Source of the DNA: a virus
DNA length: 64,000 nucleotides
IMG/VR virus record: IMGVR_UViG_3300009776_000830
Direction: 5' to 3' (one strand)
Numbering within the stretch: position 1 is the stretch's first letter; each line of letters opens with the position of its first letter. The position numbers were made by a program, and so were the translations under genes. Shown in pieces: positions 722 through 57,303 of the stretch. The notes under the pieces are model-generated. The model saw nothing but the letters and a program-made list of their open reading frames with translations, made no database searches and was not told the origin of the DNA.

Positions 722-2323
722 ATGAAAAAAATGAATTTAATAAATTTAACGGAATTTGATAAATTTGTCGAAATGATGAACGAAAGCGTAAGTGGTTCAG
801 TACGAAGCCGTTTTGCCCCTTCGCCTACAGGCGCACTTCACCTTGGGGGGGTGCGAACCGCGTTATATAATTATCTTTTCGCAAAAAAACATAATGGTGT
901 GTTTTATTTAAGAATTGAGGATACTGATCAGGTTCGTTTTGTGCCAGGCGCCGAAGAATATATTAGAAAGTCTTTAGAGTGGTGTGGAATTTCACCGGAT
1001 GAATCTCCTTGGCAGGGTGGGCCTTACGGTCCTTATCGTCAATCAGAAAGATATGACATATATCCAAAATATGCTAAAGAATTAGTGGATAAGGGTAAAG
1101 CCTATTATTGTTTTGACACACCAGATGATATAGAAAATATGAAATCTAAACTCTTAGAACAGGGAGTTGCTTCACCTCAATATGATGCTAACACCAGAAT
1201 GATGATGAAAAATTCTCTAACTCTTTCAGCAGATGAAGTTCAACATTTATTGGATTCAAAAGCTCCTTTTGTCATTAGAATAAAGTTTCCAGAAGACACA
1301 CAAATAGTTGTTAATGATATAATTAGAGGAACTGTTGTTGCCAACACAAACACATTGGATGATAAAGTTTTATTCAAATCAGACGGACTACCTACTTATC
1401 ACTTGGCTAATGTTGTTGATGATCATTTAATGAAAACATCGCACGTTATACGTGGAGAAGAGTGGTTGCCAAGTGCTCCGCTTCATTTCTTTTTATATGA
1501 GGCATTCGGTTGGGATACACCAGAATTTGCTCATCTTTCATTAATATTGAAACCAAGTGGGGCTGGAAAATTGAGTAAAAGAGATGGGGACGCTTTAGGA
1601 TTTCCAGTTTTTCCTTTAAAGTGGACGGATCCTAAAAATCCAGATGCCACATCAAAAGGATATAAAGACAGCGGTTATTTGCCTGAAGCTTTCATAAATA
1701 TGTTGGCTTTTCTTGGTTGGAATCCAGGAACAGAGCAAGAAGTTATGACAATGGACGAGCTCATACAATCTTTTTCATTAGAAAGATGTGGTAAAGCTGG
1801 AGCTCGTTTTAATATAGAAAAAACGAAATGGTATAACGGACAATATATTAGAAAAATGTCTGATGAAGAGGTTTTTGATGAATTAAAAAAATCACTGGAT
1901 GAAAGAGGAATAGATTTACCAGATGGAACTATAAAGAAAATGATAGAAATGAATAAGGGTAAAGTTAATTTTGTTTCAGATATATATGAAGCTTCTTTAT
2001 ATTTATTTGAAAAACCAGAAACATATGATAAGAAAACTGTCGAGAAGAAATGGACAGAAAAAAGCCCTGAGGTAATTTCTAATTTGAGAGAAGTTTTAGA
2101 AGGTGTCCACGATTGGTCAGGTGAAAATATTCAAAGAGCATTTGAAAAATATGTTAATGAAAATCCTGATTTGAATTTTGGTATGGTTGCTCCGGCATTG
2201 AGACTTGTTTTAACTGGTATGGGTAATGGTCCATCACTATTTGATATTATGGAAATCATCGGTAAAGAAGAAACGTTAAATAGAATGACAAATTATAATA
2301 TACAAGTTAAAAAGAAAAAATAG
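722..2323 (+). CDS. gltX: Glutamate--tRNA ligase (Bacteroidetes-type) with an extra N-terminal capsid-targeting-like leader
   Basis: RFAPSPTGALHLGG (HIGH), RIEDTDQ, HVIRGEEWLPS, GKLSKRDG (KMSKS), GFPVFPLKWTDP insert typical of Bacteroidetes GluRS. Confidence 0.97.
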   Translation: MKKMNLINLTEFDKFVEMMNESVSGSVRSRFAPSPTGALHLGGVRTALYNYLFAKKHNGVFYLRIEDTDQVRFVPGAEEYIRKSLEWCGISPDESPWQGGPYGPYRQSERYDIYPKYAKELVDKGKAYYCFDTPDDIENMKSKLLEQGVASPQYDANTRMMMKNSLTLSADEVQHLLDSKAPFVIRIKFPEDTQIVVNDIIRGTVVANTNTLDDKVLFKSDGLPTYHLANVVDDHLMKTSHVIRGEEWLPSAPLHFFLYEAFGWDTPEFAHLSLILKPSGAGKLSKRDGDALGFPVFPLKWTDPKNPDATSKGYKDSGYLPEAFINMLAFLGWNPGTEQEVMTMDELIQSFSLERCGKAGARFNIEKTKWYNGQYIRKMSDEEVFDELKKSLDERGIDLPDGTIKKMIEMNKGKVNFVSDIYEASLYLFEKPETYDKKTVEKKWTEKSPEVISNLREVLEGVHDWSGENIQRAFEKYVNENPDLNFGMVAPALRLVLTGMGNGPSLFDIMEIIGKEETLNRMTNYNIQVKKKK

Positions 2324-4934: not shown

Positions 4935-5252
4935 ATGGAAAAATTTAGCAATAAGTATATAGAGCAGTTTGATATTTTAAAAAAGGCTATCATAGGATTT
5001 GAGTTTGAATTTTATGCTGAAAGATCTTATTATAAATTATTGGAATTATTGAATCGTGAACTCGAACCAATTAATGTCTGGGGTCGTAGAAAATATCACT
5101 CTGATTTAGAACCGGATTCGAAAAATTTTAAAATTGAACCTGATTTATCTGGTGGCCCCAATATGATTGAATTGATCACAGGACCAATGCCTTACCATAA
5201 CGCCAAACTTATTCTTTTAAAAATTTTAAAGAAGTGTCCCCTAGATTTATAG
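4935..5252 (+). pseudogene. 5' stub (about 99 codons) of the amidoligase gene 8115..9515
   Basis: Near-identical N-terminal protein sequence (MEKFSNKYI..GFEFEF..KIEPDLS..ELITGPMPYHNAKLILLKILK); homology ends at 5231. Confidence 0.85.
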
Positions 5253-6541: not shown

Positions 6542-6916
6542 ATGAAAACATATTTAGAATTTTTAAATGAACAAGCCGCTCCAGCACCCGCTCCAGCACC
6601 CGCTCCAGCACCCGCTCCAGCACCCGCTCCAGCACCCGCTCCAGCACCCGCTCCAGCACCCGATCCAGCACCGCCCGCTCCAGCCACACAAATCCCAAAA
6701 AGAACAACTTCTTATGGTGGGAATTTAGCGAGAGCTAATGATGATAAGGTTCATGAAATAATATATAAATTAACACCTCAAACAAAAACTGATCTTCAAA
6801 ATGTTTATAAGAAAGTATTAGACGAAATCCATAAGACATTTAAAGATGATCCATCTATGACTACAAGAGATATTGCAACTGCTGTAGGAAGTATAATGTA
6901 TAATCAGCAGGGATAA
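6542..6916 (+). CDS. Putative internal head protein with T4-type capsid-targeting sequence and (Pro-Ala)n linker
   Basis: Starts MKTYLEFLNE (7/10 identical to the T4 IPII/IPIII CTS MKTYQEFIAE), followed by a PA repeat. Confidence 0.7.
   Translation: MKTYLEFLNEQAAPAPAPAPAPAPAPAPAPAPAPAPAPAPDPAPPAPATQIPKRTTSYGGNLARANDDKVHEIIYKLTPQTKTDLQNVYKKVLDEIHKTFKDDPSMTTRDIATAVGSIMYNQQG
6578..6673 (+). repeat. 12-bp tandem repeat GCTCCAGCACCC x7 plus one variant, encoding (APAP)n
   Basis: Read directly from the sequence. Confidence 0.95.
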
Positions 6917-8114: not shown

Positions 8115-9515
8115 ATGGAAAAATTTAGCAACAAATATATTGATCAATTTGACGTTCTAAAAAAAGCTGTTCTCGGGTTTGAATTCGAGTTTTATACAGA
8201 CAGATCTTATTATAAATTATTGGAGCTGTTGAACAGGGAATTGGACCCAATTAAAATTTGGGGGCGTAGAAAATATCACTCGGATTTGAAACCAGATGCC
8301 GAAAATTTTAAAATAGAACCAGACTTGAGTATGGGAAATCAGGGTGTTGAATTAATCACAGGACCAATGCCATATCATAACGCCAAACTGATATTGTTGA
8401 AGATATTAAAAATTTTACAAACTCACGCTAAAACAGACGAAAAATGTTCTCTCCATATAAATGTTTCTTTTGATAAAAAACAAACAGATAAAACAATAGA
8501 CAAGTTAAATCGATTAAAAATTATTTTAGCTGTTGATGAAAATAATATTTACAAATACTTTCCAACAAGAAGAGATAATTTTTATGCCAAAACAGTAAAA
8601 AGGCTCGTCCCATTTAAAGGGTATGATTATACTAATGACGCCATAAATATACTTGTTCAAAATTTGCAGTTACCAGACACAAAATATTATGGTATAAATG
8701 TTAAGGAAATTGGTGATGGTAGATTGGAATTTAGATATATTGGTGACACTGATTATCAATTCAAAACCAAAGAAATTATCGAATTAATGGACTATTTTAT
8801 AATGTTGGCTTGGAACAGCATAAGTGAGGAATTGAATGATGATGAAATTGATTCCTTAAGAAAATATCTTGACGAAAACATAAATAACTTTAAGAACTTT
8901 AATAAATTTGAGAATTTTATTGCCGAATTTCCAACAATTCAATTAGAAATTGACAAAAACGATGAGTTTGTTGTTGTTAAGTCACATTACGGCCAAATAT
9001 ACCCGAAGATATATGATATGATTAAAAATATTGACAATTTAAATAATTGTATTATAAACTACGATACAAATACCAAAAAACTGGAATTGGTTGACGCTGA
9101 TTTTAAAACCATTTTTGAATTAAAATACATGACTATTATAGATAGTTCACCAAACGGCGGAACATACTTAAATTGTAGATTTATAGGGTGTGATATAAAA
9201 AATAGTCATTTATATAATTGTGAAATAATTGGAACAGAGGTATTTAATTGTAAGTGTGAGGATTGTAATATTGATCAAACCAGCGAACTGAAAAAGGTCT
9301 ATTTCAACGGCGGAAATATGGATGGTGATTTTGTCTCGGGAGTATTCAGATCCGGAAAAATTGGCGAATTTGGCGAATTGAAAGATGGTGTCAAAATAAT
9401 ATCTGACACAGACAGCTATTTCAATACCAATTTAGAAGATGACAACAAAGAATCCAGCAAACCGAAAGAAACAATTAAGAAATTAAACCCCTATACGAAT
9501 ACAGCTAAGTTTTAA
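8115..9515 (+). CDS. Putative amidoligase (COOH-NH2 ligase, Amidoligase_2-like)
   Basis: GFEFEF, KIEPDLS, VELITGP, SLHINVS, KYYGIN, LEFRY motifs in the expected order. Confidence 0.75.
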   Translation: MEKFSNKYIDQFDVLKKAVLGFEFEFYTDRSYYKLLELLNRELDPIKIWGRRKYHSDLKPDAENFKIEPDLSMGNQGVELITGPMPYHNAKLILLKILKILQTHAKTDEKCSLHINVSFDKKQTDKTIDKLNRLKIILAVDENNIYKYFPTRRDNFYAKTVKRLVPFKGYDYTNDAINILVQNLQLPDTKYYGINVKEIGDGRLEFRYIGDTDYQFKTKEIIELMDYFIMLAWNSISEELNDDEIDSLRKYLDENINNFKNFNKFENFIAEFPTIQLEIDKNDEFVVVKSHYGQIYPKIYDMIKNIDNLNNCIINYDTNTKKLELVDADFKTIFELKYMTIIDSSPNGGTYLNCRFIGCDIKNSHLYNCEIIGTEVFNCKCEDCNIDQTSELKKVYFNGGNMDGDFVSGVFRSGKIGEFGELKDGVKIISDTDSYFNTNLEDDNKESSKPKETIKKLNPYTNTAKF

Positions 9516-11242: not shown

Positions 11243-12520
11243 ATGAAAATTGAAAATACTACGGTGTGTTATTCCCCCAGGTTTAGGGAAATTTTGATAA
11301 GTATAAATAGTGGAATATCAATGTTCCTTTTGAATGTGGAAAATAATTCTGATTATCTTTATCCATTCAGTTATATTGATCTAACAGATAATGGAGATAT
11401 GCTTTCTTTTTTATCATCTGATAGAATGTATGACTATGAAGAACGTGAGCATTTTTGGTCATCTAAAAAAAGAAGTGTTGCTAGAGTCGGTAAATTGGTT
11501 GGCAGATTACTTCCAGTTTTATCTTCAAAAGATATTGAAGATTTTGTTAATGCCTATCGATCGGAGTTTAACACTAATAATGACATATCGTTTGAAATAG
11601 TAAATGGTAATGATATTATAAAATATTACAATGGATCTACTTATGAACAAGGCAATGGCTCCTTGAATCGTTCGTGTATGCGGCACGATAAATGTTGTAA
11701 ATATATGGACATATATCGTCAGAATTCAAATATTAATATGGTTATACTTTTGAATAAAAAGAAAAGGAGAATTCTTGGTAGAGCATTATTGTGGAAATTG
11801 ACTGAGCCATCTGGCATCTATTTAATGGATAGAATATATACAGTCGATGATTCAATTGTTCATTTGTTCAAAAAAATAGCAAAGAAAAACGGATGGTTGT
11901 ATAAAACTAAGCAAACTTTTGATTGTGTTGATGTAATAGATACTGATGAAAAAGAGAAATTTATCAAAATGAAAGTCCAACTTGAATGTGGCTCAGATTA
12001 TTATCCATATTTGGACACTTTGTTGTATTTCAATAGAAAAAATCTATATTTAACAAATGATATTGAAGATTTTAAAACCAATTCTGATATTATAAAGCTT
12101 CGAGATATAAATGGAGGAAATCAAGATAATGAAAATTTTGTTTATGATAGTATCAATGATGCGATGATTCATATAGATGATTCGATATATTGTTATTATG
12201 GCGACATTTACACACATAAAAATTTGGCTTTTTTCTCAGAGTCAGATAAAGAATATATATCTCCAAATAATTTGAGATATTCCAAGACAGAAGATAAATT
12301 TCTTCATAAACGTAATAGTGTTTTTTCTTATTTTTTAAATGATTTTATACATACAGATAATGCTGTGAGAGTTTATTTGAACAAAGAGAAAGAATTTGAT
12401 TTTATGCCAGTTTCTATGAAAGATAAAGAATTTATGAGAGATGAAATGAGTGGAGATTTTTATATCAGTGAATTATTGAGGAAAATAAAAAAAGGAAAAT
12501 ATGTTTTAAATGAAAGATAA
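11243..12520 (+). CDS. Conserved phage protein (SCMRH..RILGRALLW..MDRIY) with an N-domain homologous to 4112/5234
   Basis: Motifs seen in the translation; N-terminal SPRF..SYID..DMLSFL. Confidence 0.75.
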   Translation: MKIENTTVCYSPRFREILISINSGISMFLLNVENNSDYLYPFSYIDLTDNGDMLSFLSSDRMYDYEEREHFWSSKKRSVARVGKLVGRLLPVLSSKDIEDFVNAYRSEFNTNNDISFEIVNGNDIIKYYNGSTYEQGNGSLNRSCMRHDKCCKYMDIYRQNSNINMVILLNKKKRRILGRALLWKLTEPSGIYLMDRIYTVDDSIVHLFKKIAKKNGWLYKTKQTFDCVDVIDTDEKEKFIKMKVQLECGSDYYPYLDTLLYFNRKNLYLTNDIEDFKTNSDIIKLRDINGGNQDNENFVYDSINDAMIHIDDSIYCYYGDIYTHKNLAFFSESDKEYISPNNLRYSKTEDKFLHKRNSVFSYFLNDFIHTDNAVRVYLNKEKEFDFMPVSMKDKEFMRDEMSGDFYISELLRKIKKGKYVLNER

Positions 12521-12968
12521 AATTGTTATAAAAAATAAAAAAGCTTTTTTTAACTATGATATAGTAGAAAAAGAAGTGGCTGGAATAATTCTCCTTGGGC
12601 CAGAGGTCAAATCTGTTAGAAATTCTAATGTGAGTTTTAATGATTCATATTGCCTATTCATAAACAATGAGTTATGGATAAGAAATCTTCATATATCAGA
12701 ATATGAAAATTCATCATCTACAGATAAATATGATCCAAAAAGAGATCGTAAACTCCTTATTACAAAAGAACAAATAAGAAAATTTAAAAGAAAAATAGAA
12801 GAAAAAGGATTTACCATTATACCTCTAAACATATTGGTAAATGAGGAAGGGATCATAAAAATTGAAATCGCTCTGGCTAGAGGAAAGAAAGAATATGACA
12901 AGAGAAATGATATAGATGAAAGAGACAATAAGAAAAAATTAGATAGAATATTAAAAAATTATATATAA
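12510..12968 (+). CDS. smpB: SsrA (tmRNA)-binding protein SmpB
   Basis: NKKAFFNYDI, AGIILLGPEVKSVR, RDRKLL, GKKEYDKR C-terminal tail. Confidence 0.95.
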   Translation: MKDKIVIKNKKAFFNYDIVEKEVAGIILLGPEVKSVRNSNVSFNDSYCLFINNELWIRNLHISEYENSSSTDKYDPKRDRKLLITKEQIRKFKRKIEEKGFTIIPLNILVNEEGIIKIEIALARGKKEYDKRNDIDERDNKKKLDRILKNYI

Positions 12969-23586: not shown

Positions 23587-24387
23587 ATGAAACATTTGAA
23601 ATTATATGAGAATTTTAGATTAAATGAAGAATTTAGTAGTGATACAGCATCATTGATCGCAGTAATTATTCAGACTGGACTTTTAGCTGGAGTTGCAACT
23701 GGGCTTAGTATAGCAGCAATCAAAACAGCGATATCTAATTTTATTCATAATAGAAAAGTTAATAAAATATACAATAATTTAATGAAATATTTAAAAGATC
23801 CTGTCATCAAGCCGTTGATAGTCGAATATAGTTCTTTGTGTGTTGTAGGAGAAAAAGAGGTAGGTGATAGAAAACAGGATTATTACAGTTATGAAAGATT
23901 AAAAGAATTGTCATTGACCATAAATAATAGATTAAAAGAATTGATGACTCCAAAAGAATATGATGAACTTGAAAAATTTAGAACATATATAAAAAGTAAA
24001 TTGAAAACGAAGTATTCAGAAGAAGAACCAGAAGAATATTTTAAACCTCGCAATTATGTTCCAGAATGGGATAAAGATACTATTGTTGATGTTTTTTTGA
24101 GAAATGCCAGTAATTGGTTTGATTATGAAATGAAAGCTATAAATTGGAGAAGACACGCGAGAGATATAATAGAAAAAAGTTGGATTATAAAAAATGACAA
24201 TATTATTTTGGAAGCCGAAGAAGAGGAAGGTGATGATGATGTCATTTATGGAGATAATGAAATTATAAATGAATTTGTAAGAGATTTAACAGAAGAATGG
24301 TTCGAAGAGGGAGCTTGGGCTCGTAATTTTAGAAGATATTTAACAGATATGATAATAGAAAAAGGATATGAAATAAGTAAAAAATAA
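23587..24387 (+). CDS. CTS-bearing protein with a predicted N-terminal membrane segment
   Basis: MKHLKLYENFRLNE then hydrophobic LIAVIIQTGLLAGVATGLSIAAI; TAATATATA at 23552. Confidence 0.7.
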   Translation: MKHLKLYENFRLNEEFSSDTASLIAVIIQTGLLAGVATGLSIAAIKTAISNFIHNRKVNKIYNNLMKYLKDPVIKPLIVEYSSLCVVGEKEVGDRKQDYYSYERLKELSLTINNRLKELMTPKEYDELEKFRTYIKSKLKTKYSEEEPEEYFKPRNYVPEWDKDTIVDVFLRNASNWFDYEMKAINWRRHARDIIEKSWIIKNDNIILEAEEEEGDDDVIYGDNEIINEFVRDLTEEWFEEGAWARNFRRYLTDMIIEKGYEISKK

Positions 24388-24397
24388 ATAAAAAGAT

Positions 24398-25420
24398 ATG
24401 GAAGAACTCAAAAATTTAAAAAATTTCGGTGAATTTAAAGATTCTTTAAATGAAGAACTTTTATGGGGGGCAATTAAAAATCTTTTCAACAAATTATTTA
24501 GTAATATGGATAAAAAACTCGCTGATCAAGTAAATAATTTCACAAAAAAAATTGACGCGGCTAAAACTTGGGACGAATCTGTTAGGGCATTTGAAGCTGA
24601 TATGGCGTCTATGAAAACAAAAGTTGAAACAAATGTGAATGCTGCAACAGGTCTATTGGGATTCAGAAAAGCATTGGCAGATCTTAGTGAAGCTCTTTTT
24701 GTTGAATTACAAGTCTTATCAAATAAATATCAAGTGCCAGAATTAACCGCAGCTAAAGTTTTTGCAGGGACACCGGAAGCTGAAATGTTTAACAAAAAAA
24801 ATTCAGAAGAATTTAAAACAAGCCTTGTGACGCCATTAAATGCTAAAATAATAGAATTAAATAAAACTGGAGCAGCTGGATATGATGAAGTAGCTTTGAA
24901 AACTTATCTAGACGCACAAAATAATATAGATGCAACAGAACAAGCGACAACTGGCGGAGGATCCCCAGTTAATGCGAGTCACCTTTATCAGTCGCCAAAT
25001 AAATTATTTGAGGCGACACCTGTACCATCGACGCCAGCAACGCCAGCAACTCCAGCGGAGCCAGCAACTCCAGCGGATCCAGCAACTCCAGCGGCGCCAG
25101 CAACAGGGACTCCACCTCAAGGTGACATAACAAAATTAAAGGCGCCAGCAATAAAATGGATTACTGAAAATTTATCAGGTATAGCTTTAAAGAAAGTTAA
25201 AGAAGTTCAAAAACCAAAAGGAAATGCCGCCACTGATCCATTTGATCAGGCAGCTTTAAATACAAAAGCGACAGGTAATACACAAAACTTAGCAAAATTG
25301 CTCAGAAACATAGTTCAATTACCGACAGCTGCTGATCTAGCTAAAGTGAGAGATAATTTGGCTACTTTGGGTAAAAACCGAGAAAATCCAACTTTTAAAG
25401 ATGATATTGGAAAATTTTAA
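24398..25420 (+). CDS. CTS-bearing protein with Pro-Ala-Thr linker
   Basis: MEELKNLKNFGEFKDSLNE; PATPATPAEPATPADPAT repeat. Confidence 0.7.
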   Translation: MEELKNLKNFGEFKDSLNEELLWGAIKNLFNKLFSNMDKKLADQVNNFTKKIDAAKTWDESVRAFEADMASMKTKVETNVNAATGLLGFRKALADLSEALFVELQVLSNKYQVPELTAAKVFAGTPEAEMFNKKNSEEFKTSLVTPLNAKIIELNKTGAAGYDEVALKTYLDAQNNIDATEQATTGGGSPVNASHLYQSPNKLFEATPVPSTPATPATPAEPATPADPATPAAPATGTPPQGDITKLKAPAIKWITENLSGIALKKVKEVQKPKGNAATDPFDQAALNTKATGNTQNLAKLLRNIVQLPTAADLAKVRDNLATLGKNRENPTFKDDIGKF

Positions 25421-25455: not shown

Positions 25456-25899
25456 TTAGTCAATGTTTATTTTTTTCGATTCTTTCTTTGGCACGACTTT
25501 CTTTTTTAGATCCAAAGTCAATATGCCATTATCTAGTTTAGCAGCGAGGCTATCTTCATTATAATCTTCAGTTAGAGGGAAAGTTCTTTTAAAAGAAACT
25601 TTTGAAAATTCTCTTTTTGAATAATTTTTTCCATTGTCAGATTTTTCTGTTTTACTTTCGCCGCTTACACAGACATATCCATCTTTAACACTGACGTTTA
25701 GCTCATCCTTTGAAAATCCTGGAGCCATAATTTCAATTGTTGCCCCCTCAGGCGTTTCAATAACATTTACATTACCAATTCTATTGGTTGCTAATTTTGT
25801 GGGATAATAATTTTCAACATTTTCCCAAATTGTAGGAAGACTTTCAATCATTCTTCCAAAATTGTCAAATAAATCAATACCATTGTTTTTCATATTCAT
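25456..25899 (-). CDS. Small heat-shock protein (Hsp20/alpha-crystallin family)
   Basis: APGFSKDELNV, REFSKVSFKRTFPL, AKLDNGILTLDL. Confidence 0.93.
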   Translation of the reverse strand: MNMKNNGIDLFDNFGRMIESLPTIWENVENYYPTKLATNRIGNVNVIETPEGATIEIMAPGFSKDELNVSVKDGYVCVSGESKTEKSDNGKNYSKREFSKVSFKRTFPLTEDYNEDSLAAKLDNGILTLDLKKKVVPKKESKKINID

Positions 25900-38543: not shown

Positions 38544-38774
38544 ATGAAAAACATTAAAACATTTGATGAATTTTCTTTAAATGAGAAAAATAAACCTTCG
38601 GCAGGTTTGACAAAAAAAGAGAAATCAGAAATCGTGAAGAAGGCCAAAAGAGGCGAAGATATAGGTAAGCCAGGTGAACATTTCAAAGATGTTGTAAAAA
38701 AGGCTAAGAAATATGGCGCTAAAGATCCAGAAGCAGTAGCTGGAGCAGCCCTTTGGAAAAATATTAAAAAATAA
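38544..38774 (+). CDS. Small basic CTS-bearing protein
   Basis: MKNIKTFDEFSLNE; TAATATATA at 38516. Confidence 0.75.
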   Translation: MKNIKTFDEFSLNEKNKPSAGLTKKEKSEIVKKAKRGEDIGKPGEHFKDVVKKAKKYGAKDPEAVAGAALWKNIKK

Positions 38775-41115: not shown

Positions 41116-42477
41116 ATGAAAATTAATTTTAATGATTTCATAAACGAGGAGCTATCAATGATGTCAAATAAAAAATTGAGAGACGCCATACACGACATAG
41201 TAACTAATTTGGATAAAGACCAATCAATAGATATAGAAGAGCTTTCGAGCGAGCTTTTATTGAAATATAAAATCACAATTAGTCCTAAATTTTTAGATGA
41301 ATATCTAAATGATTTCAATAAAATAAAAAGAGGTTATAATGTTTCAGACACTATTTTTTCTAGACAAGATGCTAGATGGTTGAATATCAAAGATAAAGAT
41401 GATACTAAAGAATTGAGAAATAACTTATATTATCAGAGACCATCTTTGGCGAAACATAAAGATAGAATGGTGAAAGATATAATAGAAAAAAGATTGGATG
41501 ATGCTTATAAATCTGGCATGAAAGATTTAAAATTATCAGAAGAAACCATTAAAAAAACTTTTATTTTACAAGATCCGAATGATGCTAAAAATATAATAAA
41601 GTCGATTTATGAAATGGTGAACATTCAGATGAAATATAAAAACACAAAAGAGAATTGTTGGAAGATGATGATCATTATGGGATATAATAGAATGAAATTG
41701 GATACGAAAAAGAATTATTTTGATTTAGCGCCAGAATCTATAAAAAAAGAATATGAAGAAATCGGAAAAATAAATCTAACGCTAGAAAAAGAAGATGTAA
41801 GGAAGCCAGATCCAATATTAATGGAAGACGATACGAAAAAATCCACCAAAAATGATATGACATTAAAGGAATGGAGAGAAAAAAATAATCCAGTTCCTTC
41901 ACCTAAGAAACCAGCTCTTTTGACTAAAACTGCGGATATTAAAGATTTGGATGAAATCGTTGCTAAAAATTTAGATACCAATAAAATATTTAGAGCTGAA
42001 GTTTATGATGATCCGAAAGATATATCCAGTATGAACTTATCTATTGATACAGAATATGCTAATTTATTTACATTTATGGTACCCTGTGTAAAAATATTTT
42101 ATAACACTAATATCACAATATACTGGGATGAAATTGGTGAGATGTGGTGTTATAGTGAAAAGTTGAAAAAGTATGATTATATTTATGATGAAGATAATGA
42201 AGGTAATGAAAAAAAGCCAAAAATGTCAAATAAGATCGAGACAGGGACAAATATAAAACCTGGCGATGTGCTGATCTGTCAAAAACACGACTTTTATATA
42301 TCAGAACCAATTAGAAAAACATTGGAACTGAAATTAGATCAAGGAAGGATTGCGCCAGTTGTCGGTGAAAAAAATTTCGATTATTATGTGTATGGAACAG
42401 CCAATAAAAATTTTGTGTATAAAGCCTATCATTCAACAAAAGATGATAAGTGGCATATCGCTTCTTCACTTTTTTAA
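41116..42477 (+). CDS. CTS-bearing hypothetical protein
   Basis: MKINFNDFINE start. Confidence 0.75.
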   Translation: MKINFNDFINEELSMMSNKKLRDAIHDIVTNLDKDQSIDIEELSSELLLKYKITISPKFLDEYLNDFNKIKRGYNVSDTIFSRQDARWLNIKDKDDTKELRNNLYYQRPSLAKHKDRMVKDIIEKRLDDAYKSGMKDLKLSEETIKKTFILQDPNDAKNIIKSIYEMVNIQMKYKNTKENCWKMMIIMGYNRMKLDTKKNYFDLAPESIKKEYEEIGKINLTLEKEDVRKPDPILMEDDTKKSTKNDMTLKEWREKNNPVPSPKKPALLTKTADIKDLDEIVAKNLDTNKIFRAEVYDDPKDISSMNLSIDTEYANLFTFMVPCVKIFYNTNITIYWDEIGEMWCYSEKLKKYDYIYDEDNEGNEKKPKMSNKIETGTNIKPGDVLICQKHDFYISEPIRKTLELKLDQGRIAPVVGEKNFDYYVYGTANKNFVYKAYHSTKDDKWHIASSLF

Positions 42478-42490
42478 TCTTTTTAATTTT

Positions 42491-43075
42491 TTACCATTTT
42501 TCTTCCATAAAAGGATCATCATCTATGTTTGATTTCCATCTTTCGGCTTGTTCTTCGCTAAAAGATTTATCTCTAACACTTTTTATACTAAGAGGTTTAT
42601 AATCATACATATGATTAGGACTCAGTGCTCCCCATTCGCTTCCGTCTTTCATCACTTCGTCTTTTATTGATTCTTCCATTCTATTCAATAGAAGTTCAAG
42701 TTTTTTTCTTTGCTCTGGATCAAAAATATTCAATAATTCTTCTTTTTCTTTATCGACTTTCTCATCTCTAATAAATTCTTCTGTGATGTCTGTATCAAAA
42801 TGCGTCCACTCAACAAAGACTGAATTTTTAACATATTTTTTTAATTGTTTTTTCTGTTCATTTGTTAAATCTGATAATATTTCAAATAGCTCTTTTTTAT
42901 AAAATTTATTAGTTTTTAATTTGTTGATATATCTTTGTAAATCTGTTATCTTTCCAGGGATGTGTCTCGCTAAAAGCATTATTCCAAAAAAAGTCAACAT
43001 ACCAAGCACAAAACCGATCAATTCCGATAAGGTTTCTTCATTTAAAAATTCATCATATTTCTTTAATTTTTCCAT
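42491..43075 (-). CDS. CTS-bearing membrane protein ending DDDPFMEEKW
   Basis: MEKLKKYDEFLNE, TM segment LIGFVLGMLTFFGIMLLA. Confidence 0.75.
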   Translation of the reverse strand: MEKLKKYDEFLNEETLSELIGFVLGMLTFFGIMLLARHIPGKITDLQRYINKLKTNKFYKKELFEILSDLTNEQKKQLKKYVKNSVFVEWTHFDTDITEEFIRDEKVDKEKEELLNIFDPEQRKKLELLLNRMEESIKDEVMKDGSEWGALSPNHMYDYKPLSIKSVRDKSFSEEQAERWKSNIDDDPFMEEKW

Positions 43076-43295: not shown

Positions 43296-45053
43296 ATGAT
43301 AATTGATACAAAAACAAAAATAAAATTGACTAAAAAATTAATTAATAAGTATAATTATAATGGAAATCCTGGTGATGTTATAGAGATTGATATCGAAAAT
43401 CTTCCAAATAATAGTATGAAATTAATAAAAGTTAAATGTGATATATGTGAGTCCGAAAGAAGCTTGCCGTATAGAACATATATGAAGAATTATTTAAAAT
43501 ACAATTTATATACGTGTTATGGTTGTAGTAGAATAAAATATGAAAAAACTTCCATTATTAAATTTGGGGTCAATAATCCAATGCAAAATGATGAAATAAA
43601 AAATAGATTAAAAGACACAATATTGAACAAATATGGAAGAGAATTTTATTTACAAACAGATGATAAAAAAGAAAAGGGTACTCAAACCTGCCTAACCAAA
43701 TATGGTGTTGAAAATCCGATGCAGGACACAAAAATAAAAAATAAGGCAAAAAACACAAAAAGAGAAAAATATGGAGATCATTATGAAAAGATAACAGAAA
43801 AAATAATAAAAACTAAAAAAGAGAAATATGGAGAGCATTATGAAAAGATAACAGAAAAAATAAATCTTACAAATGTAAAAAAATATGGATGTGATTATCC
43901 TTTACAAAATAAAGACATTTATAATAAATCTATAGAAACGTCAATTAATAAATATGGAATGCATCCAAATAAATGTTCGTTTATAAAAGATAAACAATTG
44001 ACGACATTATCAAATACCACTTTTCAAAAAATAAAAAACAAATATCCAGATATAAATTTTATATCTAAAGAGAACTGTCAATATACAATAAAATGTGACG
44101 ATTGTGGATTAGAGTATAAGATCAGTTTTAATTTATTTTTTCTTAGAAAATCAAACAATATAACGCTTTGCACTTTATGTAATGATCCAAAATTAAAACA
44201 TAAATCGGATTTTGAGCATCAAGTTATTAATTTTTTAGAAAAGAATGAAGTTAAATGTCAACCAAATTATAGAAAAATTTTAAATGGGAAAGAAGTAGAT
44301 ATATATCTTCCAGATTATAATATGGCTATTGAATGTAATGGGATTTTCTGGCATTCTGAATTATATAAATCAAAAAATTATCATAAAAATAAAAGCGAAG
44401 AATGTAAAAAAGTGGGGGTCGAACTTCTACACATATGGGAAGATGACTGGATATATAAACAAGATATAATAAAATCAATAATATTAAATAAATTAGGAAA
44501 AATAAAAAATAAAATTTATGCAAGAAAATGTGAAATATTAGAAATAAATGACAATAATATGGTTAAAAATTTTCTAGATGAAAATCATATTCAAGGATTT
44601 GTTAAATCTTCATTTAAAATTGGATTATTTTATAATAAAGAACTAGTTAGTTTGATGACTTTGGGTTATAGAATGATAAATTCTAAAAAAGAGTTTGAGC
44701 TCATAAGATTTTGTAATAAAAAATACACGAATGTAATAGGGTCAGCTAGTAGATTATTTAAAAATTTTATAGAAAAAATAAATAAACCATTTAAAATTAT
44801 CAGCTATTCCGATTCATCCCTTTTCAATGGTAATATGTATTTAAAAATTGGATTTGAATTAATTGGAGATACATCTTTAAATTATTATTGGGTTGTTGAT
44901 GGCATCAGAAACCATAGGTTCAAATATAATAAAAAAAAGTTAGTGATGATGGGAAATGATCCAAATAAAACAGAATATGAAATCATGACGGAGAATAATT
45001 ACTATAGGATATGGTCATGTGGAATGAAAAAATGGATATATGAAAGAAATTAA
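43296..45053 (+). CDS. Hef-like free-standing homing endonuclease (Zn ribbon, KYG repeats, Vsr/PD-(D/E)xK nuclease, conserved C-domain)
   Basis: VKCDICE, KYG repeats, EVDIYLPDYNMAIECNGIFWH, IWEDDW, NHIQG, ELIRFC, YRIWSCG. Confidence 0.85.
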   Translation: MIIDTKTKIKLTKKLINKYNYNGNPGDVIEIDIENLPNNSMKLIKVKCDICESERSLPYRTYMKNYLKYNLYTCYGCSRIKYEKTSIIKFGVNNPMQNDEIKNRLKDTILNKYGREFYLQTDDKKEKGTQTCLTKYGVENPMQDTKIKNKAKNTKREKYGDHYEKITEKIIKTKKEKYGEHYEKITEKINLTNVKKYGCDYPLQNKDIYNKSIETSINKYGMHPNKCSFIKDKQLTTLSNTTFQKIKNKYPDINFISKENCQYTIKCDDCGLEYKISFNLFFLRKSNNITLCTLCNDPKLKHKSDFEHQVINFLEKNEVKCQPNYRKILNGKEVDIYLPDYNMAIECNGIFWHSELYKSKNYHKNKSEECKKVGVELLHIWEDDWIYKQDIIKSIILNKLGKIKNKIYARKCEILEINDNNMVKNFLDENHIQGFVKSSFKIGLFYNKELVSLMTLGYRMINSKKEFELIRFCNKKYTNVIGSASRLFKNFIEKINKPFKIISYSDSSLFNGNMYLKIGFELIGDTSLNYYWVVDGIRNHRFKYNKKKLVMMGNDPNKTEYEIMTENNYYRIWSCGMKKWIYERN

Positions 45054-46818
45054 AAAAACAGTAGAAGAGCAATATGTTCAGCTAGAACATCGAGAACAAA
45101 TTCTTTTAAGACCAGACACCATAATAGGAAGCACCAAAACAGATGAGAGAGATCTGTTTGTTATGGATGGGGATAAAATCAAGATGAGAACGGTGAATTA
45201 TAATCCTGGTTTCTTTAAGATTTATGATGAAATTTTAACCAACGCATCCGATCATTATATTAGGACGAAACAAGTCAAATATATTAAAATTAATATTGAG
45301 GGCGATAATATATCAATAGAAAATGATGGGCCTGGTATACCAGTTCAAATTCATAAGAAAAAAAAGGTTTATGTACCGGAGCTTGTCTTTGGGCATCTTT
45401 TGACATCAGAAAACTATGATGACACCATAGAAAGGACTTGGGGTGGAAGAAATGGAATTGGTGGAAAAGCAACAAACATTTTCTCTAAAAAATTTATTAT
45501 CGAAACATCAGATGGTAAGAAAAAATATTATCAAGAATTTTTTGATAATATGTCTGACAAAACAAAACCAGAAATAATATCTAGTAGAAAAAATTATACA
45601 AAAATAAAGTTCTATCCAGATTTTTCAAGATTTGGAATATCCGATATAGATGGAAATATTCAAAATCTTATGATGCGGCGAGCAGTTGATGTTGCGGCAT
45701 ATTGCTCTGGCATAAAGATATACTTCAATGATACCATAATACCGATAAAGACATTCAAAGATTATATGAAAATGTATGAAATCGATGAGGATAACATTTT
45801 TTATGAAAAGATAAATGATAATTGGGAGATAGGAGTTTCAGCATCAGTAGATAATAATTTCAATCAAGTTTCTATGGTCAATGGCATATCTACCTATAAT
45901 GGTGGAACACACGTTAATATCATAATAAATCAAATAACAAAGGCTGTCCAAGAAATTTTATCTAAAAAATATAAAAACTTGAATATAAAGCCAGCTGACA
46001 TAAAAAATAGATTGTTTTTGTTTGTGAATTGTAAAATTGTCAATCCAGAGTTTAACGAGCAATCAAAAGAGACATTGAATACTAAAATTATAGATCAACC
46101 AAAAGTTTCAGACGCTTTAATAAAGAAAATAACTAGCTCGAATTTCATAAAGGAATTAGTGGATTTTTTACACGTCAAAGAAAGTTTGGACACAAAAAAG
46201 GAAATAGGAAAACATAAAATAAAAATTTCTAAACTGGATGACGCTCGTAAAGCTGGAACGTATGAGAGCGATAAATGTTATTTGACATTATGTGAAGGGG
46301 ACTCAGCCGCCGCTTCAGTTATGGCTGGACTTTCTGAAGTGGATTCGAGTTATTGGGGAATTTTTCCTTTAAGGGGGAAACCAATGAATGTTAGAGATGC
46401 AGCTCTTCAAAAAATAAGAGAAAATGAAGAAATAAAAAACATCATCAATATACTTGGCCTTGAATTTGGAAAAAAATATACAGATACATCAAAATTAAGA
46501 TATGGTAAAGTAGTATTAATGGCTGATGCAGACTGTATAGATGAAAACACAATGATTCTAACTAAAAGAGGATATGTGTCTATAAAAGATCTAAATTACG
46601 AGGATTGTGTCATGACTCATGAAAACAGATGGAAAAAAATTAAAAAAATTATAAAAACTAAGAAAACAAATCTGATTAAATTAACAATAAACAACGAAGA
46701 TTATTTTTTCGGAGAAAATCATGAGATTCCAGTGTTGAGAAATGGAGAAATCGTTTTAGTAAAAGTGAAGGATATATTAATTACTGATAAATTATTAAAA
46801 AGAAAAAACGAACTTTAA
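45040..46818 (+). CDS. Type IIA DNA topoisomerase N-half (GHKL ATPase, transducer, first part of TOPRIM; 498 aa) fused to a split-intein N-fragment
   Basis: EILTNASDH, ENDGPGIP, GGRNGIGGK, LCEGDSA, PLRGKPMNV, MADAD then CIDENT. Confidence 0.95.
   Translation: MKEIKKTVEEQYVQLEHREQILLRPDTIIGSTKTDERDLFVMDGDKIKMRTVNYNPGFFKIYDEILTNASDHYIRTKQVKYIKINIEGDNISIENDGPGIPVQIHKKKKVYVPELVFGHLLTSENYDDTIERTWGGRNGIGGKATNIFSKKFIIETSDGKKKYYQEFFDNMSDKTKPEIISSRKNYTKIKFYPDFSRFGISDIDGNIQNLMMRRAVDVAAYCSGIKIYFNDTIIPIKTFKDYMKMYEIDEDNIFYEKINDNWEIGVSASVDNNFNQVSMVNGISTYNGGTHVNIIINQITKAVQEILSKKYKNLNIKPADIKNRLFLFVNCKIVNPEFNEQSKETLNTKIIDQPKVSDALIKKITSSNFIKELVDFLHVKESLDTKKEIGKHKIKISKLDDARKAGTYESDKCYLTLCEGDSAAASVMAGLSEVDSSYWGIFPLRGKPMNVRDAALQKIRENEEIKNIINILGLEFGKKYTDTSKLRYGKVVLMADADCIDENTMILTKRGYVSIKDLNYEDCVMTHENRWKKIKKIIKTKKTNLIKLTINNEDYFFGENHEIPVLRNGEIVLVKVKDILITDKLLKRKNEL
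45055..45108 (+). repeat. Perfect 54-bp direct repeat, copy 2
   Basis: Identical to 43165..43218. Confidence 0.97.
46534..46815 (+). mobile_element. Split intein N-fragment (IntN, 94 aa)
   Basis: Cys1 block A CIDENTMILT directly after DAD; block B FGENHEI; ORF ends shortly after. Confidence 0.9.
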
Positions 46819-48480
46819 ATTTCCAGAGTCATATATTCTATAAATTTTTCTCTCAAGCATTATATCGTGTTCGGTCTTGCTCGGATCAAATCCTTGTTTA
46901 ACTAGCTCATCTTTTCTAAAACCAAATCTATGCTTTCTCACACCATCGATAATATAATAATAATTAGGCTCGGTCTTTCCAACAAGCTTGAAACCAAGTT
47001 TTTTATATAACTCTCCTTGACTCCAAGACCTGTCAGCATAGCTGGTCACTTCTTTTGGCTCAAAGTTTTTAACAAAAAATTTGAACAGTCTTGAAGCTCC
47101 TCCAACAACACTGGTGTTCAGCTTGTTACAGAACCTTAGCATCTCGTAGGATCCATCGTGTGAACTTTGTCCCATAGCCCTTCTCAAGCTTCCAAAGGTC
47201 ATTAAAGAAACAAGTTCTTCTTGATAAAAAAGACCGATCTTGATCTTTGAACCGACGAACCCTTGAATGTGGTTCGTTTCAAGGAAATCTTTAACTAATT
47301 TATTATTATTAACCTCTTTCATATCACATTTTCTAGCATAGATCTTATTTGGAGTCTTGTTCAACAAATTCAGAATTCTAGATTTAACGATTTCTTGTTT
47401 ATACAACCATTCATCCTCATAAATATGAATGAGTTTAATCTCTTGTTTTTCTGCTAGTTCAGTTTTTTCAAGATGATAATTGTTTGACTTGTTCAATTCA
47501 TTATGCCACCATATTCCATTAAATTCAAAAGCTATTTTTAAATCAGGTATATAAATATCTAGCTCACCGTTTATTGTTTTCCTATCTGATGATAAAACTT
47601 TATAATATTTTTCAATAAATTCTTTTACTTGAATTTGACCACCAGATGTATAATATGTTGGATTACAAATATTACAGATTTTCAATCCGGATCTGGCTCT
47701 ATTGTAGATGACATGTTTAGGCACAATGAATGTATGATCTTTTCCACAATCACATTTACATTCACACAAATTTGTATTTGATATTGATAAAATTGTAAGA
47801 ATTTTTTCAAAATTTTTTATAAATGATTCTTTAAATTTATCTTTACATTCAATAGTGTTATTATAATAATCGCCATATCTTTCTACACTTGTTTCATATT
47901 GTTTGTTTTTAAAATCTTTAAATTGAAGAGGATGTTCCACTCCATATTTTTCGAGAAGAACATTTTTTATTTTTACTTTGACTGACTCATCTTGAAATAA
48001 ATTTTCTACTCCGTATTTCTCCAAACATGTCTTTTTATATCTATCTTTAAAAATATTTGTTTTGCTTGTATGTTCAACTCCATATTTTTCTAAACATGTC
48101 TTTTTATATTTTTTTTTAACAATATCACTTTTCTTTGGGTGCGAAACTCCATATTTTTTCAATGATGACTTTTTAAGTTTTTCTTTTGTGTCGATATTCA
48201 AAGTTGAACATCTTGTAGAACAAAAAGTTCTATATCCTAATGTTTTATTTAAAAATTTAACTATTCTACCACATTCTTTACAAGTTGGAACATTATTCAT
48301 GTTATTAACGAATAAATAAACTTTTTCTTTAAAAGATAATCGATCAAAATCGAACTTATTCGAATAATCAACAATTTGTTCATAAATTTCATGACAATTT
48401 TTCATCAAATATTCTTCTCTGGAATATTTTCCAGAATCATTTTTTGTTAAATACAATTTTTCAAAATCAATTATTGTCAT
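46795..48480 (-). CDS. Hef-like homing endonuclease inverted between the intein halves
   Basis: PTCKECG, FCSTRC, KYG repeats, ELDIYIPDLKIAFEFNGIWWH, NHIQG, EMLRFC, YRIYDSG. Confidence 0.88.
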   Translation of the reverse strand: MTIIDFEKLYLTKNDSGKYSREEYLMKNCHEIYEQIVDYSNKFDFDRLSFKEKVYLFVNNMNNVPTCKECGRIVKFLNKTLGYRTFCSTRCSTLNIDTKEKLKKSSLKKYGVSHPKKSDIVKKKYKKTCLEKYGVEHTSKTNIFKDRYKKTCLEKYGVENLFQDESVKVKIKNVLLEKYGVEHPLQFKDFKNKQYETSVERYGDYYNNTIECKDKFKESFIKNFEKILTILSISNTNLCECKCDCGKDHTFIVPKHVIYNRARSGLKICNICNPTYYTSGGQIQVKEFIEKYYKVLSSDRKTINGELDIYIPDLKIAFEFNGIWWHNELNKSNNYHLEKTELAEKQEIKLIHIYEDEWLYKQEIVKSRILNLLNKTPNKIYARKCDMKEVNNNKLVKDFLETNHIQGFVGSKIKIGLFYQEELVSLMTFGSLRRAMGQSSHDGSYEMLRFCNKLNTSVVGGASRLFKFFVKNFEPKEVTSYADRSWSQGELYKKLGFKLVGKTEPNYYYIIDGVRKHRFGFRKDELVKQGFDPSKTEHDIMLERKIYRIYDSGNLKFVFSF

Positions 48481-48632
48481 ATGATTATATCATCTATATT
48501 TTTTCCTATTTTTTTAAAATAATTAAACAATATCCACTCTATAAGCTTTGACTTGTTTTTTGTATTATCATTTAACAGCTCTAATATTTTTGGATTTATT
48601 GTAAAAGTTGTTCCAATTTTTTTTGTTATCAT
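48477..48632 (-). CDS. Ribbon-helix-helix (CopG-like) protein, 51 aa; stop overlaps the endonuclease start (ATGA)
   Basis: Manual translation MITKKIGTTFTINPKILELLNDNTKNKSKLIEWILFNYFKKIGKNIDDIII. Confidence 0.7.
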   Translation of the reverse strand: MITKKIGTTFTINPKILELLNDNTKNKSKLIEWILFNYFKKIGKNIDDIII

Positions 48633-48707
48633 AAACTTTTTTTATTTGTATATATTAATATTTAAAAGTCAAAAACCATTATTTTTACAATTATTTTACA
48701 TTATTAT

Positions 48708-48818
48708 TTAAAGATGAATATGATCAACCACAACAACATCGACACTTTCTTTATTCATAGAACTCATTATGTCTATACAATCTCCTAAATATAATTCAAC
48801 ATTTTGAAATTTATCCAT
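48708..48818 (-). pseudogene. 5' stub (36 aa) of an N4/N6 DNA methyltransferase
   Basis: MDKFQNVELYLGDCIDIMSSMNKESVDVVVVDHIHL*: typical GDC..SVD..D(PPY) start, truncated where DPPY should be. Confidence 0.7.
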
Positions 48819-48931
48819 TTTTATTTTTTTTTATTTATATATTAAATTGAAAAACCATTATTTTTCCATTATTTTGTTTTTCAAACTATAAAATAATATT
48901 AAGATATATAAAAAAAAAATGATTATTGTTT

Positions 48932-49117
48932 ATGGTAAATAGATTAAAAAATGAAGAAAAACGGAAAAATCTTCCAGTTTCTTTAAATAGAAAATTATAT
49001 GATATTCTAGAAGAAGTTTGTGCCGAAAAAGATGTTAATAAATCAAAATTAGTGGAGAAACTGATAAGAGAATATCTAAAAGAAGAAAAAGGAATAGACA
49101 CAAGCTCTATAATATAA
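48932..49117 (+). CDS. Ribbon-helix-helix (CopG-like) protein, paralog of 48477..48632
   Basis: LPVSLNRKLYDILEEVCAEKDVNKSKLVEKLIREYL. Confidence 0.8.
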   Translation: MVNRLKNEEKRKNLPVSLNRKLYDILEEVCAEKDVNKSKLVEKLIREYLKEEKGIDTSSII

Positions 49118-49135
49118 AAAAGAAGCAAGAGAATA

Positions 49136-49285
49136 ATGGATTTAAATATAAAAGATTTTGAAGTTTTAAATATAGATAATATAAAGAAAATAGAAAAAGA
49201 AACCACAATGTATGATATCGAAGTGGAAGACGATAATACATTTTACATATCTAAAAATCAAAAAGATGATATATTAGTTCATAAT
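49136..49285 (+). mobile_element. Split intein C-fragment (IntC, 50 aa)
   Basis: Block F MYDIEVEDDNTFY, block G ILVHN followed by Cys+1. Confidence 0.92.
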
Positions 49286-53190: not shown

Positions 53191-54174
53191 ATGTTTAAAG
53201 AAGGTTTAGTTTGTGGTAAATTTGAAGTGTTGCATAAAGGACATTTAGCTCTAATAGATTTTGCTAGAAATAGATGTGATAAACTGAATATTTTATTATG
53301 TTCGAATGAAAAATATGAATTGATACCTGGTCGAACAAGATTTCAATGGTTAAAAGAAACATATAAATATGACAATAAAATTAATGTGGAATATACAGAT
53401 GTAGATTTGCCATATACTTCTGAATCAAATAGAGATGTTGCTGAAGTTTGGTCGAATTATTTCAAAAAATTATATCCAGAATTATATGTCATATTTACTT
53501 CAGAAAAATATGGTGATTATGTTGCTGAATACATGAAAATCGAGCATATTATGTTTGATGAAAAAAGAATTTCAAAACCAATAAGCTCGACAGAAATAAT
53601 AAAAAGACCTCTATCAAATTGGGATTTTATATCAGATGTGGCCAAACCATATTTTGTTAAAAAAATTGTTTTATTTGGAACTGAATCAACTGGAAAATCC
53701 ACCTTCTCAGAAAAACTAGCTAAAGAGTTTTCAACAAATTGTGTTCTTGAAAGATCTAGAGATATAATGACAAATACAGATACTTGCACTTATGAAGATA
53801 TGTTTATTTTAGCCGAAATGCATTCCAATGATATAAATAAAGGCATTATAAATTCAAACAAGATGATTTTTGTAGATACAAATATAGAAACTATAAAAGT
53901 TTATTCCGATTTCTTATTTAATAAGAAACCGTCATTTAAAAATTGGATCGAACAATCGAACAAGGCTGATTTATATATATTTTTATCAAACGACGCCCCA
54001 TATGTTCAAGATGGAACCAGGCTCAATTTAGAAAGAAGAAATAGATTGAATGATATGGAATTAGAACACTTGATAAAAAATAATCTAAACTTTGAAATCG
54101 TAAAAGGACAGAATTGGGACGAAAGGTATCAAAAAGCTATTCAAATAATTAAAAAATTTAAAGAAAATTTATGA
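53191..54174 (+). CDS. nadR: NadR-like bifunctional NMN adenylyltransferase / nicotinamide-riboside kinase (no HTH)
   Basis: GKFEVLHKGH (HxGH), FTSEKYG, Walker A GTESTGKST, FVDTN, YVQDGTR. Confidence 0.88.
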   Translation: MFKEGLVCGKFEVLHKGHLALIDFARNRCDKLNILLCSNEKYELIPGRTRFQWLKETYKYDNKINVEYTDVDLPYTSESNRDVAEVWSNYFKKLYPELYVIFTSEKYGDYVAEYMKIEHIMFDEKRISKPISSTEIIKRPLSNWDFISDVAKPYFVKKIVLFGTESTGKSTFSEKLAKEFSTNCVLERSRDIMTNTDTCTYEDMFILAEMHSNDINKGIINSNKMIFVDTNIETIKVYSDFLFNKKPSFKNWIEQSNKADLYIFLSNDAPYVQDGTRLNLERRNRLNDMELEHLIKNNLNFEIVKGQNWDERYQKAIQIIKKFKENL

Positions 54175-56976: not shown

Positions 56977-57303
56977 TTAGAGATTTTCAAAAATGTTATC
57001 TAATTTTGATCTGTCTATAGTTCTTATATCTGAATTTTCTTCTTCTTCAAAATAATATGATAGATTTTGTATATCTATAACGATAAAATTCTTTTTATCA
57101 ACATCTTTAACTGCATCGTCTGCCGTAAAGCTATAATCGGTCAATTTATCAACGATGCCTTTATCAAACTTTATTTGAAATTTAAATTTATTCTCTTTTG
57201 AGAATTTTCTTTGTGGACCTGGTTCATTCATTTCAGCTGGAACAGGTTGAACATCAGCATTTTCATTCATAAAAGAATTATAATTTTTAATTATTTTTTT
57301 CAT
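56977..57303 (-). CDS. CTS-bearing small protein
   Basis: MKKIIKNYNSFMNE. Confidence 0.7.
   Translation of the reverse strand: MKKIIKNYNSFMNENADVQPVPAEMNEPGPQRKFSKENKFKFQIKFDKGIVDKLTDYSFTADDAVKDVDKKNFIVIDIQNLSYYFEEEENSDIRTIDRSKLDNIFENL

Follow-up and report, generated by a model that had tools for sequence, protein, structure and literature searches.

A gene for a glutamyl-tRNA synthetase (GluRS) lies at positions 722-2323 of a 64,000-nucleotide stretch of viral DNA (the window; IMG/VR record IMGVR_UViG_3300009776_000830), and its product begins with a leader peptide that is absent from the cellular enzymes. The leader is translated and under purifying selection. It is not specific to GluRS, being one member of a general family of N-terminal tags carried by unrelated proteins of the same phages. 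On balance, the sequence is best read as a capsid-targeting and processing propeptide of the bacteriophage T4 type, attached to a functional GluRS in a lineage of huge phages with T4-like heads. What is new is an aminoacyl-tRNA synthetase (aaRS) as the tagged cargo. The window is a piece of the genome of a huge Bacteroidota phage. It belongs to a 168-kb metagenome contig (ena:ERZ27257455:k141_340260), of which the window and a 10-kb flank were covered, and has a G+C content of about 28-30%. Its gene content includes a gp5-like baseplate hub with lysozyme, type II topoisomerase subunits, an MT-A70 methylase, SmpB, a giant collagen-like protein, a gene resembling those of TonB-dependent receptors, and two tRNA-Val genes.

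The GluRS open reading frame (ORF) can be divided into the following parts.

722-2323, + strand: GluRS (gltX-type) ORF, 533 residues from the first ATG, matching TIGR00464, PF00749 and PF19269; another ATG in the same frame is at 731.
722-784, + strand: N-terminal leader M1-E21, with the aromatic pair F12/F15 followed by M19-N20-E21; conserved, translated and a member of the tag family.
785-799, + strand: short linker S22-S26 (SVSGS) ahead of the catalytic core; the putative mature N-terminus.
800-1831, + strand: class I catalytic domain PF00749, residues 27-370 (profile match).
1922-2290, + strand: anticodon-binding domain PF19269, residues 401-523 (profile match).

Judged by its profile matches, the ORF is a complete bacterial-type GluRS. 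It scores 476 bits against TIGR00464 (gltX_bact, the NCBIfam equivalog for bacterial GluRS; cut-off 290), 309 bits against PF00749 and 105 bits against PF19269, the domain that separates GluRS from GluQRS. The GluQRS models score under their cut-offs. The HIGH (H40-L-G-G43) and KMSKS (K283-L-S-K-R287) motifs are invariant in an alignment of 49 sequences (A1). The nearest named cellular relatives are Flavobacteriales enzymes (Cryomorphaceae, Cryomorpha, Halocola) with 57-59% identity over the whole enzyme, in agreement with the initial annotation, which had described the protein as Bacteroidetes-like. The discriminating-type GltX of the Flavobacteriales (TIGR00464) has the same domain order and the same two motifs, and the phage is best regarded as having a working copy of such an enzyme, predicted to be functional. 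The serine of the KLSKR motif, which HipA targets in Escherichia coli, is simply conserved in the phage protein.

The family profiles begin only at residue 27. The RFAPSPTG motif at the start of the catalytic core is preceded by 30 residues counted from the ATG at 722, or by 27 from the ATG at 731, whereas the Flavobacteriales enzymes have no leader and start 5-8 residues ahead of the motif. Relative to the cellular enzymes, the phage GluRS has about 20-24 extra N-terminal residues. The initial annotation had quoted this peptide and put its length at about 24; alignment with the Flavobacteriales enzymes confirms the extension, and both the quoted peptide and the quoted length are right to within 2-3 residues. 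Upstream, the frame is closed by a stop codon at 707-709, 12 nucleotides ahead of the first ATG. The leader is kept in more than 50 phage GluRS orthologues. Close homologues, about 35 in number (68-88% identity, 529-549 residues), have it in the form M-x-L-x-N-[LI]-T-E-F-[DE]-x-F-x-x-[LM]-M-K-E-S-V-S-G, and in a second group (57-61% identity) it has diverged to ..[SNY]-F-x-x-F-K-K-L-N-E-S-V-S-G. The ratio of non-synonymous to synonymous changes (pN/pS), calculated from the nine orthologues with DNA, comes to 0.33 for the leader, 0.37 for the linker and 0.24 for the enzyme body. Synonymous changes occur at the codons of the conserved leader residues Leu, Asn, Thr, Phe and Glu, showing, together with these ratios, that the leader is conserved at the protein level.

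A putative processing site, recognized as a sequence motif, lies at M19-N20-E21↓S22 in the window GluRS and takes the form [LM]-[MIL]-K-E↓S in the orthologues (the arrow marks the possible cut). Cleavage after E21 would leave S-V-S-G-S-V-R-S-R-F.., with eight residues before R-F, and the resulting N-terminus would have the length found in the cellular enzymes (for example, M-S-E-K-S-V-R-V-R-F). An AlphaFold2 (AF2) model of GluRS has a mean predicted local distance difference test score (pLDDT) of 89.7. The leader appears in it as a low-confidence helix at residues 9-19, unpacked from the enzyme body, and the pLDDT is below 50 at residues 17-24, a segment that includes the putative cleavage site. 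The model thus suggests, at low confidence, that the leader is a free helix situated outside the enzyme fold.

The tag family was defined by the pattern [FYW]xx[FY]x(0-3)[ILMFV][NKAQS]E, required to lie in the first 28 residues and applied to the window and eight related loci. The pattern occurs at 45 of the 262 ORF N-termini (17%). Its frequency is 0.6% (11 of 1883) in internal 28-residue windows of the same proteins and 0.8% (44 of 5240) in shuffled N-termini, and the enrichment at ORF N-termini has a p value of 1e-32 by Fisher's exact test. The pattern was composed after examples had been seen; it also matches in loci obtained later (L012, L013, L020 and L026). When the tags are aligned at their Glu, the consensus is M-I-K-[KN]-[YF]-x-x-F-[ILVM]-N-E↓[NASEQ]. 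Of 42 non-redundant cases, 22 have the Glu at residue 10-11, and canonical tags have Tyr or Phe at -6 from it and Phe at -3 (the latter in 30 of 33). Tagging of GluRS co-occurs with tags elsewhere in the same genome.

The capsid-targeting sequence (CTS) of T4 is MKTYQEFIAE (PMC8442874), and suppressor analysis has assigned its residues 4 and 7 to targeting and residues 8 and 10 to processing (PMC9026906). It is found on IPI, IPII and IPIII, which are internal proteins (Mullaney and Black 1996, cited by PMC9026906 and PMC8442874). The functional positions Y4, F7, I8 and E10 have the spacing -6, -3, -2 and 0, which is precisely that of the four conserved positions of the tag. The two are also alike in their N-terminal site, in their length of about 10 residues, in the aromatic, aromatic, aliphatic and Glu character of these positions, and in being attached to unrelated carrier proteins. 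They differ in that about 15% of the genes are tagged here but only a handful in T4, and in that Asn nearly always precedes the Glu here. Moreover, the cargo considered here is a 60-kDa housekeeping-type enzyme, unlike the internal proteins of T4, and its targeting and cleavage are predicted from the sequence.

A second comparison is offered by the giant phages phiKZ, 201phi2-1 and SPN3US, in which the propeptides of ejection and inner-body proteins are processed at an S/A-x-E motif (PMC9026906, PMC5694885). As proposed here, many head-internal proteins of these phages are cut after Glu by a prohead protease related to gp21, and a large mass of protein is ejected. However, the cleavage context is S/A/G-x-E in those phages and [ILMV]-N-E in the tags, and their propeptides are long, unlike the short shared N-terminal tag. 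No aaRS was found among the ejected cargo of these three phages in the literature searched, in which there was likewise no paper tying a CTS to an aaRS or reporting an aaRS in phage virions.

The head genes were read in a relative, LR756501, rather than in the 168-kb contig of the window. LR756501.1 is the phage record nearest to the window GluRS, with 74% identity over query residues 1-524, the leader included. It represents an uncultured phage of 735 kb, and the genome is said to come from the 2020 study by Al-Shayeb et al. of huge phages carrying aaRS genes. As in T4, the genes for the portal, protease-scaffold and capsid proteins follow one another in this order. The portal (PF07230, 236 bits) and the Gp23-family capsid protein (PF07068, 83 bits) are identified by profile, and the 807-residue protease-scaffold protein encoded between them has an N-terminal part with a sub-threshold match to PF03420, the T4 prohead protease family. 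Its C-terminal part contains 12 tandem 14-residue repeats with EYIAE or a close variant, comparable to the second half of the T4 CTS, EFIAE. Altogether this protein has 15 [FY][ILMV]xE sites, against 1.75 expected and a maximum of 8 in 2000 shuffles, and several x-I/M-N-E↓S/A sites, one of which is near its own N-terminus. The propeptide of the LR756501 capsid protein ends ..Q-M-N-E↓N-V-G-Y. Thus, the motif at the end of the GluRS leader is the one that the head proteins of this lineage offer to the maturation protease. The suggestion of the initial annotation that the leader resembles a capsid-targeting sequence is borne out by the occurrence of the tag on many unrelated proteins, by its [ILM]-x-E end, which is that of T4-type prohead protease sites, and by the T4-type head of the lineage.

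The cultured phage nearest to this lineage by capsid protein is Tenacibaculum phage PTm1 (28% identity), in which the equivalent of the 807-residue gene is annotated as "prohead core scaffolding protein and protease". In the window, a short ORF (58023-58247, + strand) starts M-I-S-L-N-Q-N-G-M-G-R-I, similar to A-T-L-N-Q-N-G-M-G-R-V, the N-terminus predicted for the mature capsid protein of LR756501, and may be a fragment or a paralogue of a capsid protein.

In a maximum-likelihood tree the leader-bearing GluRS sequences form one clade (98/99 support) adjoining the Flavobacteriales enzymes. A separate clade of huge-phage GluRS (L016-L018, L020, L026 and L032) has an extension of its own, M-K-Y-I-K-x-R-x-x-F-L-x-E-S, separated from the core by a linker of about 35 residues. 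In L016, L017, L018, L026 and L032 this linker is acidic and conserved (..DDALHxLATHDD..). The starts of these genes were placed near 9860-9890 in L017, L018, L026 and L032 and near 3070 in L016. Both clades use the local version of their genome-wide tag. The second clade is interleaved in the tree with leaderless phage GluRS, suggesting that the GluRS tag either is ancient and has been lost repeatedly or was gained more than once. The tag and acidic linker of this clade may together be a two-part propeptide. A second leader-bearing clade of 591-605 residues (P0041-P0054, P0078, P0114 and P0117; L012:7374-9167) has an additional C-terminal coiled-coil domain, PF10458 (Val_tRNA-synt_C), which is missing from both the window GluRS and cellular GluRS. 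A single-protein scan of viral contigs with the window GluRS gave no relatives, whereas an alignment-based scan did find them.

Assuming that the leader functions as the T4 CTS does, we infer the following course of events. Late in infection, the GluRS precursor would dock onto the scaffolding core of the prohead by means of the leader aromatics F12 and F15. A gp21-like prohead protease would then cut after M19-N20-E21, releasing a mature enzyme that begins at S22 and has an N-terminus of native length. The mature GluRS would be retained in the filled head and enter the next host with the DNA, where its benefit may be that charging of Glu-tRNA is ready before phage genes are expressed.

GluRS is the only aaRS seen with a tag among those of the phages examined. 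No tag was found on the LeuRS-like or the class-II-like protein of LR756501, nor, as judged from their N-terminal sequences, on the IleRS-, LeuRS- and GlnRS-like genes of L017 and L032. A wider proposal can be put forward tentatively: the capsid would be loaded with ready-made, matured GluRS and perhaps 100 other tagged enzymes and effectors, all injected with the DNA, and the presence of the tag on GluRS in two separate phage GluRS clades, but on no other synthetase seen, would hint that the host reacts to the start of infection by specifically disabling GluRS or the charging of Glu-tRNA, for instance through HipA-like kinases. That defences of the HipA type, or others directed at tRNA, are the reason for injecting GluRS is speculation. 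A further supposition of the initial annotation was that SmpB and the tRNAs may accompany the synthetase in the virion. No leader precedes SmpB (12510-12968), which leaves this part of the idea unsupported; the earlier interpretation as a whole is partly supported.

Several observations weigh against the propeptide interpretation. The GluRS leader is longer than both the canonical tag and the T4 CTS, with its Glu at residue 18-21 instead of 10-11, and the aromatic pair F12/F15 is at -9/-6, leaving three extra residues between it and the M-N-E site. The same +3 spacing is present in four other tagged ORFs, and near-canonical spacing occurs in some GluRS of the second homologue group (MKILKNYNDFTLNE↓N in L013). 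Were all tagged proteins packaged, the roughly 15% of genes concerned would amount to more than 100 proteins, far beyond T4, and a homing endonuclease with a tag would be a strange thing to package. The PF03420 match, which was made in LR756501 and not in the window's contig, has a score of 24 bits, under the Pfam cut-off of 27. No such leaders were seen among 51 annotated ORFs in a 50-kb stretch of PTm1, making this phage unfit as an experimental stand-in. Lastly, ATATATA is present within 60 nucleotides upstream of 17 of 45 tagged ORFs (38%) and 47 of 211 others (22%), an enrichment too weak to show co-regulation with the head genes. The main rival explanation accepts that the shared tag is real and assigns it a role other than head packaging, with GluRS acting only inside the producing cell. 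The tag might dock proteins to some other phage-built assembly or compartment, time their proteolytic activation or degradation, or bind a common partner. The existence of the tag family and its conservation fit such a role equally well, and the large number of tagged genes, with a homing endonuclease and a nucleotidase among the cargo, is as easily reconciled with an intracellular sorting or regulatory tag as with injection. However, the coincidence of four tag positions with the targeting and processing residues of the T4 CTS would then be unexplained, as would the repeated occurrence of [FY]-[ILV]-x-E and I/M-N-E in the protease-scaffold protein and at the end of the capsid propeptide. A non-packaging role is considered rather unlikely, although it is the most serious of the rivals.

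Three further candidates were rejected. One of them, an improbable one, is that the extension is a helix appended specifically to GluRS for tRNA binding, regulation or complex formation, as in the appended domains of other aaRS. Strict conservation across the GluRS clade and the N-terminal extension of the second phage GluRS clade agree with it, but dozens of unrelated proteins start with the same motif, the AF2 model leaves the leader unpacked on the enzyme, and in both clades the extension is a local version of a genome-wide tag. Still less probable, and largely refuted, is that the leader has no peptide role and reflects either AT composition or selection on the mRNA for an A/U-rich, unstructured start in a host that does not use Shine-Dalgarno sequences. 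The low G+C content of the genome and the A/T-rich leader codons would be in keeping with this. Yet shuffled N-termini of the same composition match the tag pattern some twentyfold less often than the real ones, and huge-phage loci of equal or lower G+C with leaderless GluRS (L021-L025, L027 and L028; 23-30% G+C) give 0-1 matches, showing that composition does not explain the tag. Synonymous codons vary freely in the leader while the Glu (GAA/GAG) is invariant, although AAA or AAT would be more A/T-rich, and highly expressed structural genes as well as replication genes have no leader. The remaining candidate, a true start at M18 or M19 with the leader untranslated, has almost no probability left. 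It could appeal to the in-frame ATGs at 773 and 776 and to one database gene call (P0032) that starts there. Against it, the frame is open and its amino acids are conserved in all orthologues, without frameshifts or stops and with the leader pN/pS given above. Several orthologues have no Met at the positions of M18 and M19 (P0022 and P0027; L001 has L-M), and P0027 has none at all between its first Met and the RFAPSPTG core. In L004 and L008 the equivalent of M4 is Phe or Ile, so that translation there must start at the first ATG. A downstream start, named in the initial annotation as a finding that would refute its reading, is thereby excluded as a general explanation.

The other tagged ORFs of the window, and the gene next to GluRS, are as follows.

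2-709, + strand: 3' part of a GIY-YIG/NUMOD1 endonuclease, the full form of which starts MIIDFITYINE↓Q in the parent contig.
6542-6916, + strand: tagged ORF MKTYLEFLNE↓Q; a (PA)n tract comes after the tag, which is the one most like the T4 CTS MKTYQEFIAE.
23587-24387, + strand: tagged ORF MKHLKLYENFRLNE↓E, within the tail/baseplate region.
24398-25420, + strand: tagged ORF ..LKNFGEFKDSLNE↓E, with the +3 spacing of the GluRS leader.
38544-38774, + strand: tagged ORF MKNIKTFDEFSLNE↓K.
41116-42477, + strand: tagged ORF MKINFNDFINE↓E.
42491-43075, - strand: tagged ORF MEKLKKYDEFLNE↓E.
56977-57303, - strand: tagged ORF MKKIIKNYNSFMNE↓N.

On the parent contig, a tight cluster of five genes, all read in one direction, ends with GluRS. 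Its members encode a leucine-rich repeat (LRR) protein, two ORFans, the GIY-YIG/NUMOD1 endonuclease (the fourth) and GluRS, and each has the tag at its start. The tagged pair of GIY-YIG endonuclease and GluRS is seen again in L006. Among 48 tagged proteins, the recognizable domains are PPK2 (twice), LRR, ankyrin, S-adenosylmethionine (SAM) methyltransferase, NT5C and GIY-YIG, the rest being ORFans; to judge from these domains, the proteins look effector-like. The D-x-D-G-V motif of the NT5C-type nucleotidase lies six residues past the tag Glu, and the Y-I-Y-T-L motif of the GIY-YIG endonuclease nine residues past it. Both enzymes thus have, in common with GluRS, the pattern of a modular add-on. 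PHROGs and Pfam assigned most of the tagged window ORFs to no family, and hence gave them no virion-protein annotation. In the window, the tail and baseplate proteins, topoisomerase, radical-SAM, NadR-like and Nudix proteins have no tag, as was the case for SmpB.

An Hsp20-family protein of the window (25456-25899, - strand) has the N-terminus ..G-I-D-L-F-D-N-F-G-R-M-I-E↓S, which is loosely similar to the long leader of GluRS and falls outside the strict pattern. A further motif, D-P-Y-G-E-E-x-W, is located within about 10-20 residues past the tag in five small proteins (L001:19614-19991, L001:21644-21961, L006:7928-8287, L007:767-1459 and L008:2998-3387). In LR756501, the same motif stands at the end of a 178-residue protein (L003:1429-1965, minus strand) that is a free-standing paralogue of the prohead protease domain. 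The motif may serve as a second element for docking or cleavage.

A promoter-like motif, (T/A)AATATATA, precedes many tagged genes as well as, in LR756501, the genes for the portal, protease-scaffold and capsid proteins, at a distance of 20-30 nucleotides. More broadly, it lies about 5-40 nucleotides ahead of many starts, in the window (4935, 6542, 8115, 23587, 27444, 31095, 38544, 43296, 51865, 57884 (-), 59798 (-) and 59884) and in L054 and L058. In style it resembles the T4 late promoter TATAAATA. There is no copy in the 12-nucleotide gap upstream of GluRS; the closest copies stand where the five-gene array begins and, inside the endonuclease gene, about 130 nucleotides upstream.

Among the other genes of the window, the TonB-dependent-receptor-like protein (54171-56111, + strand) has Plug and beta-barrel domains and an N-terminus resembling a signal peptide. 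The collagen-triple-helix repeat protein (59884-63999, + strand; PF01391, 443 bits) exceeds 1372 residues, its gene being open at the 3' end, and has a local G+C content of 44-48%, compared with about 28% elsewhere. The type II topoisomerase is split within 43296-51067 into a GyrB-like ORF (45040-46818) and a TOPRIM_C/topoIV-A ORF (49136-51067), with two DUF7487 endonuclease-like ORFs (43296-45053; 46795-48480, minus strand) beside and between them. Two ORFs on the + strand, 4935-5252 and 8115-9515, have near-identical N-termini, MEKFSNKYI[ED]QFD[IV]LKKA.., the first being a 105-residue stub of the second (466 residues).

If the tag works as it does in T4, these phages bring translation apparatus into the host as protein and not only as genes. 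GluRS would then be the first virion-delivered aaRS, the "translation genes" of huge phages would have to be read differently, and injected cargo would widen from small anti-restriction proteins to housekeeping enzymes. As GluRS is the sole aaRS seen with the tag, the tag would direct attention, in a concrete and testable way, to a weak point or a defence of the host that concerns the charging of Glu-tRNA. More generally, the tag would be a means of predicting, from genomes of uncultivated huge phages, the proteome that they inject.

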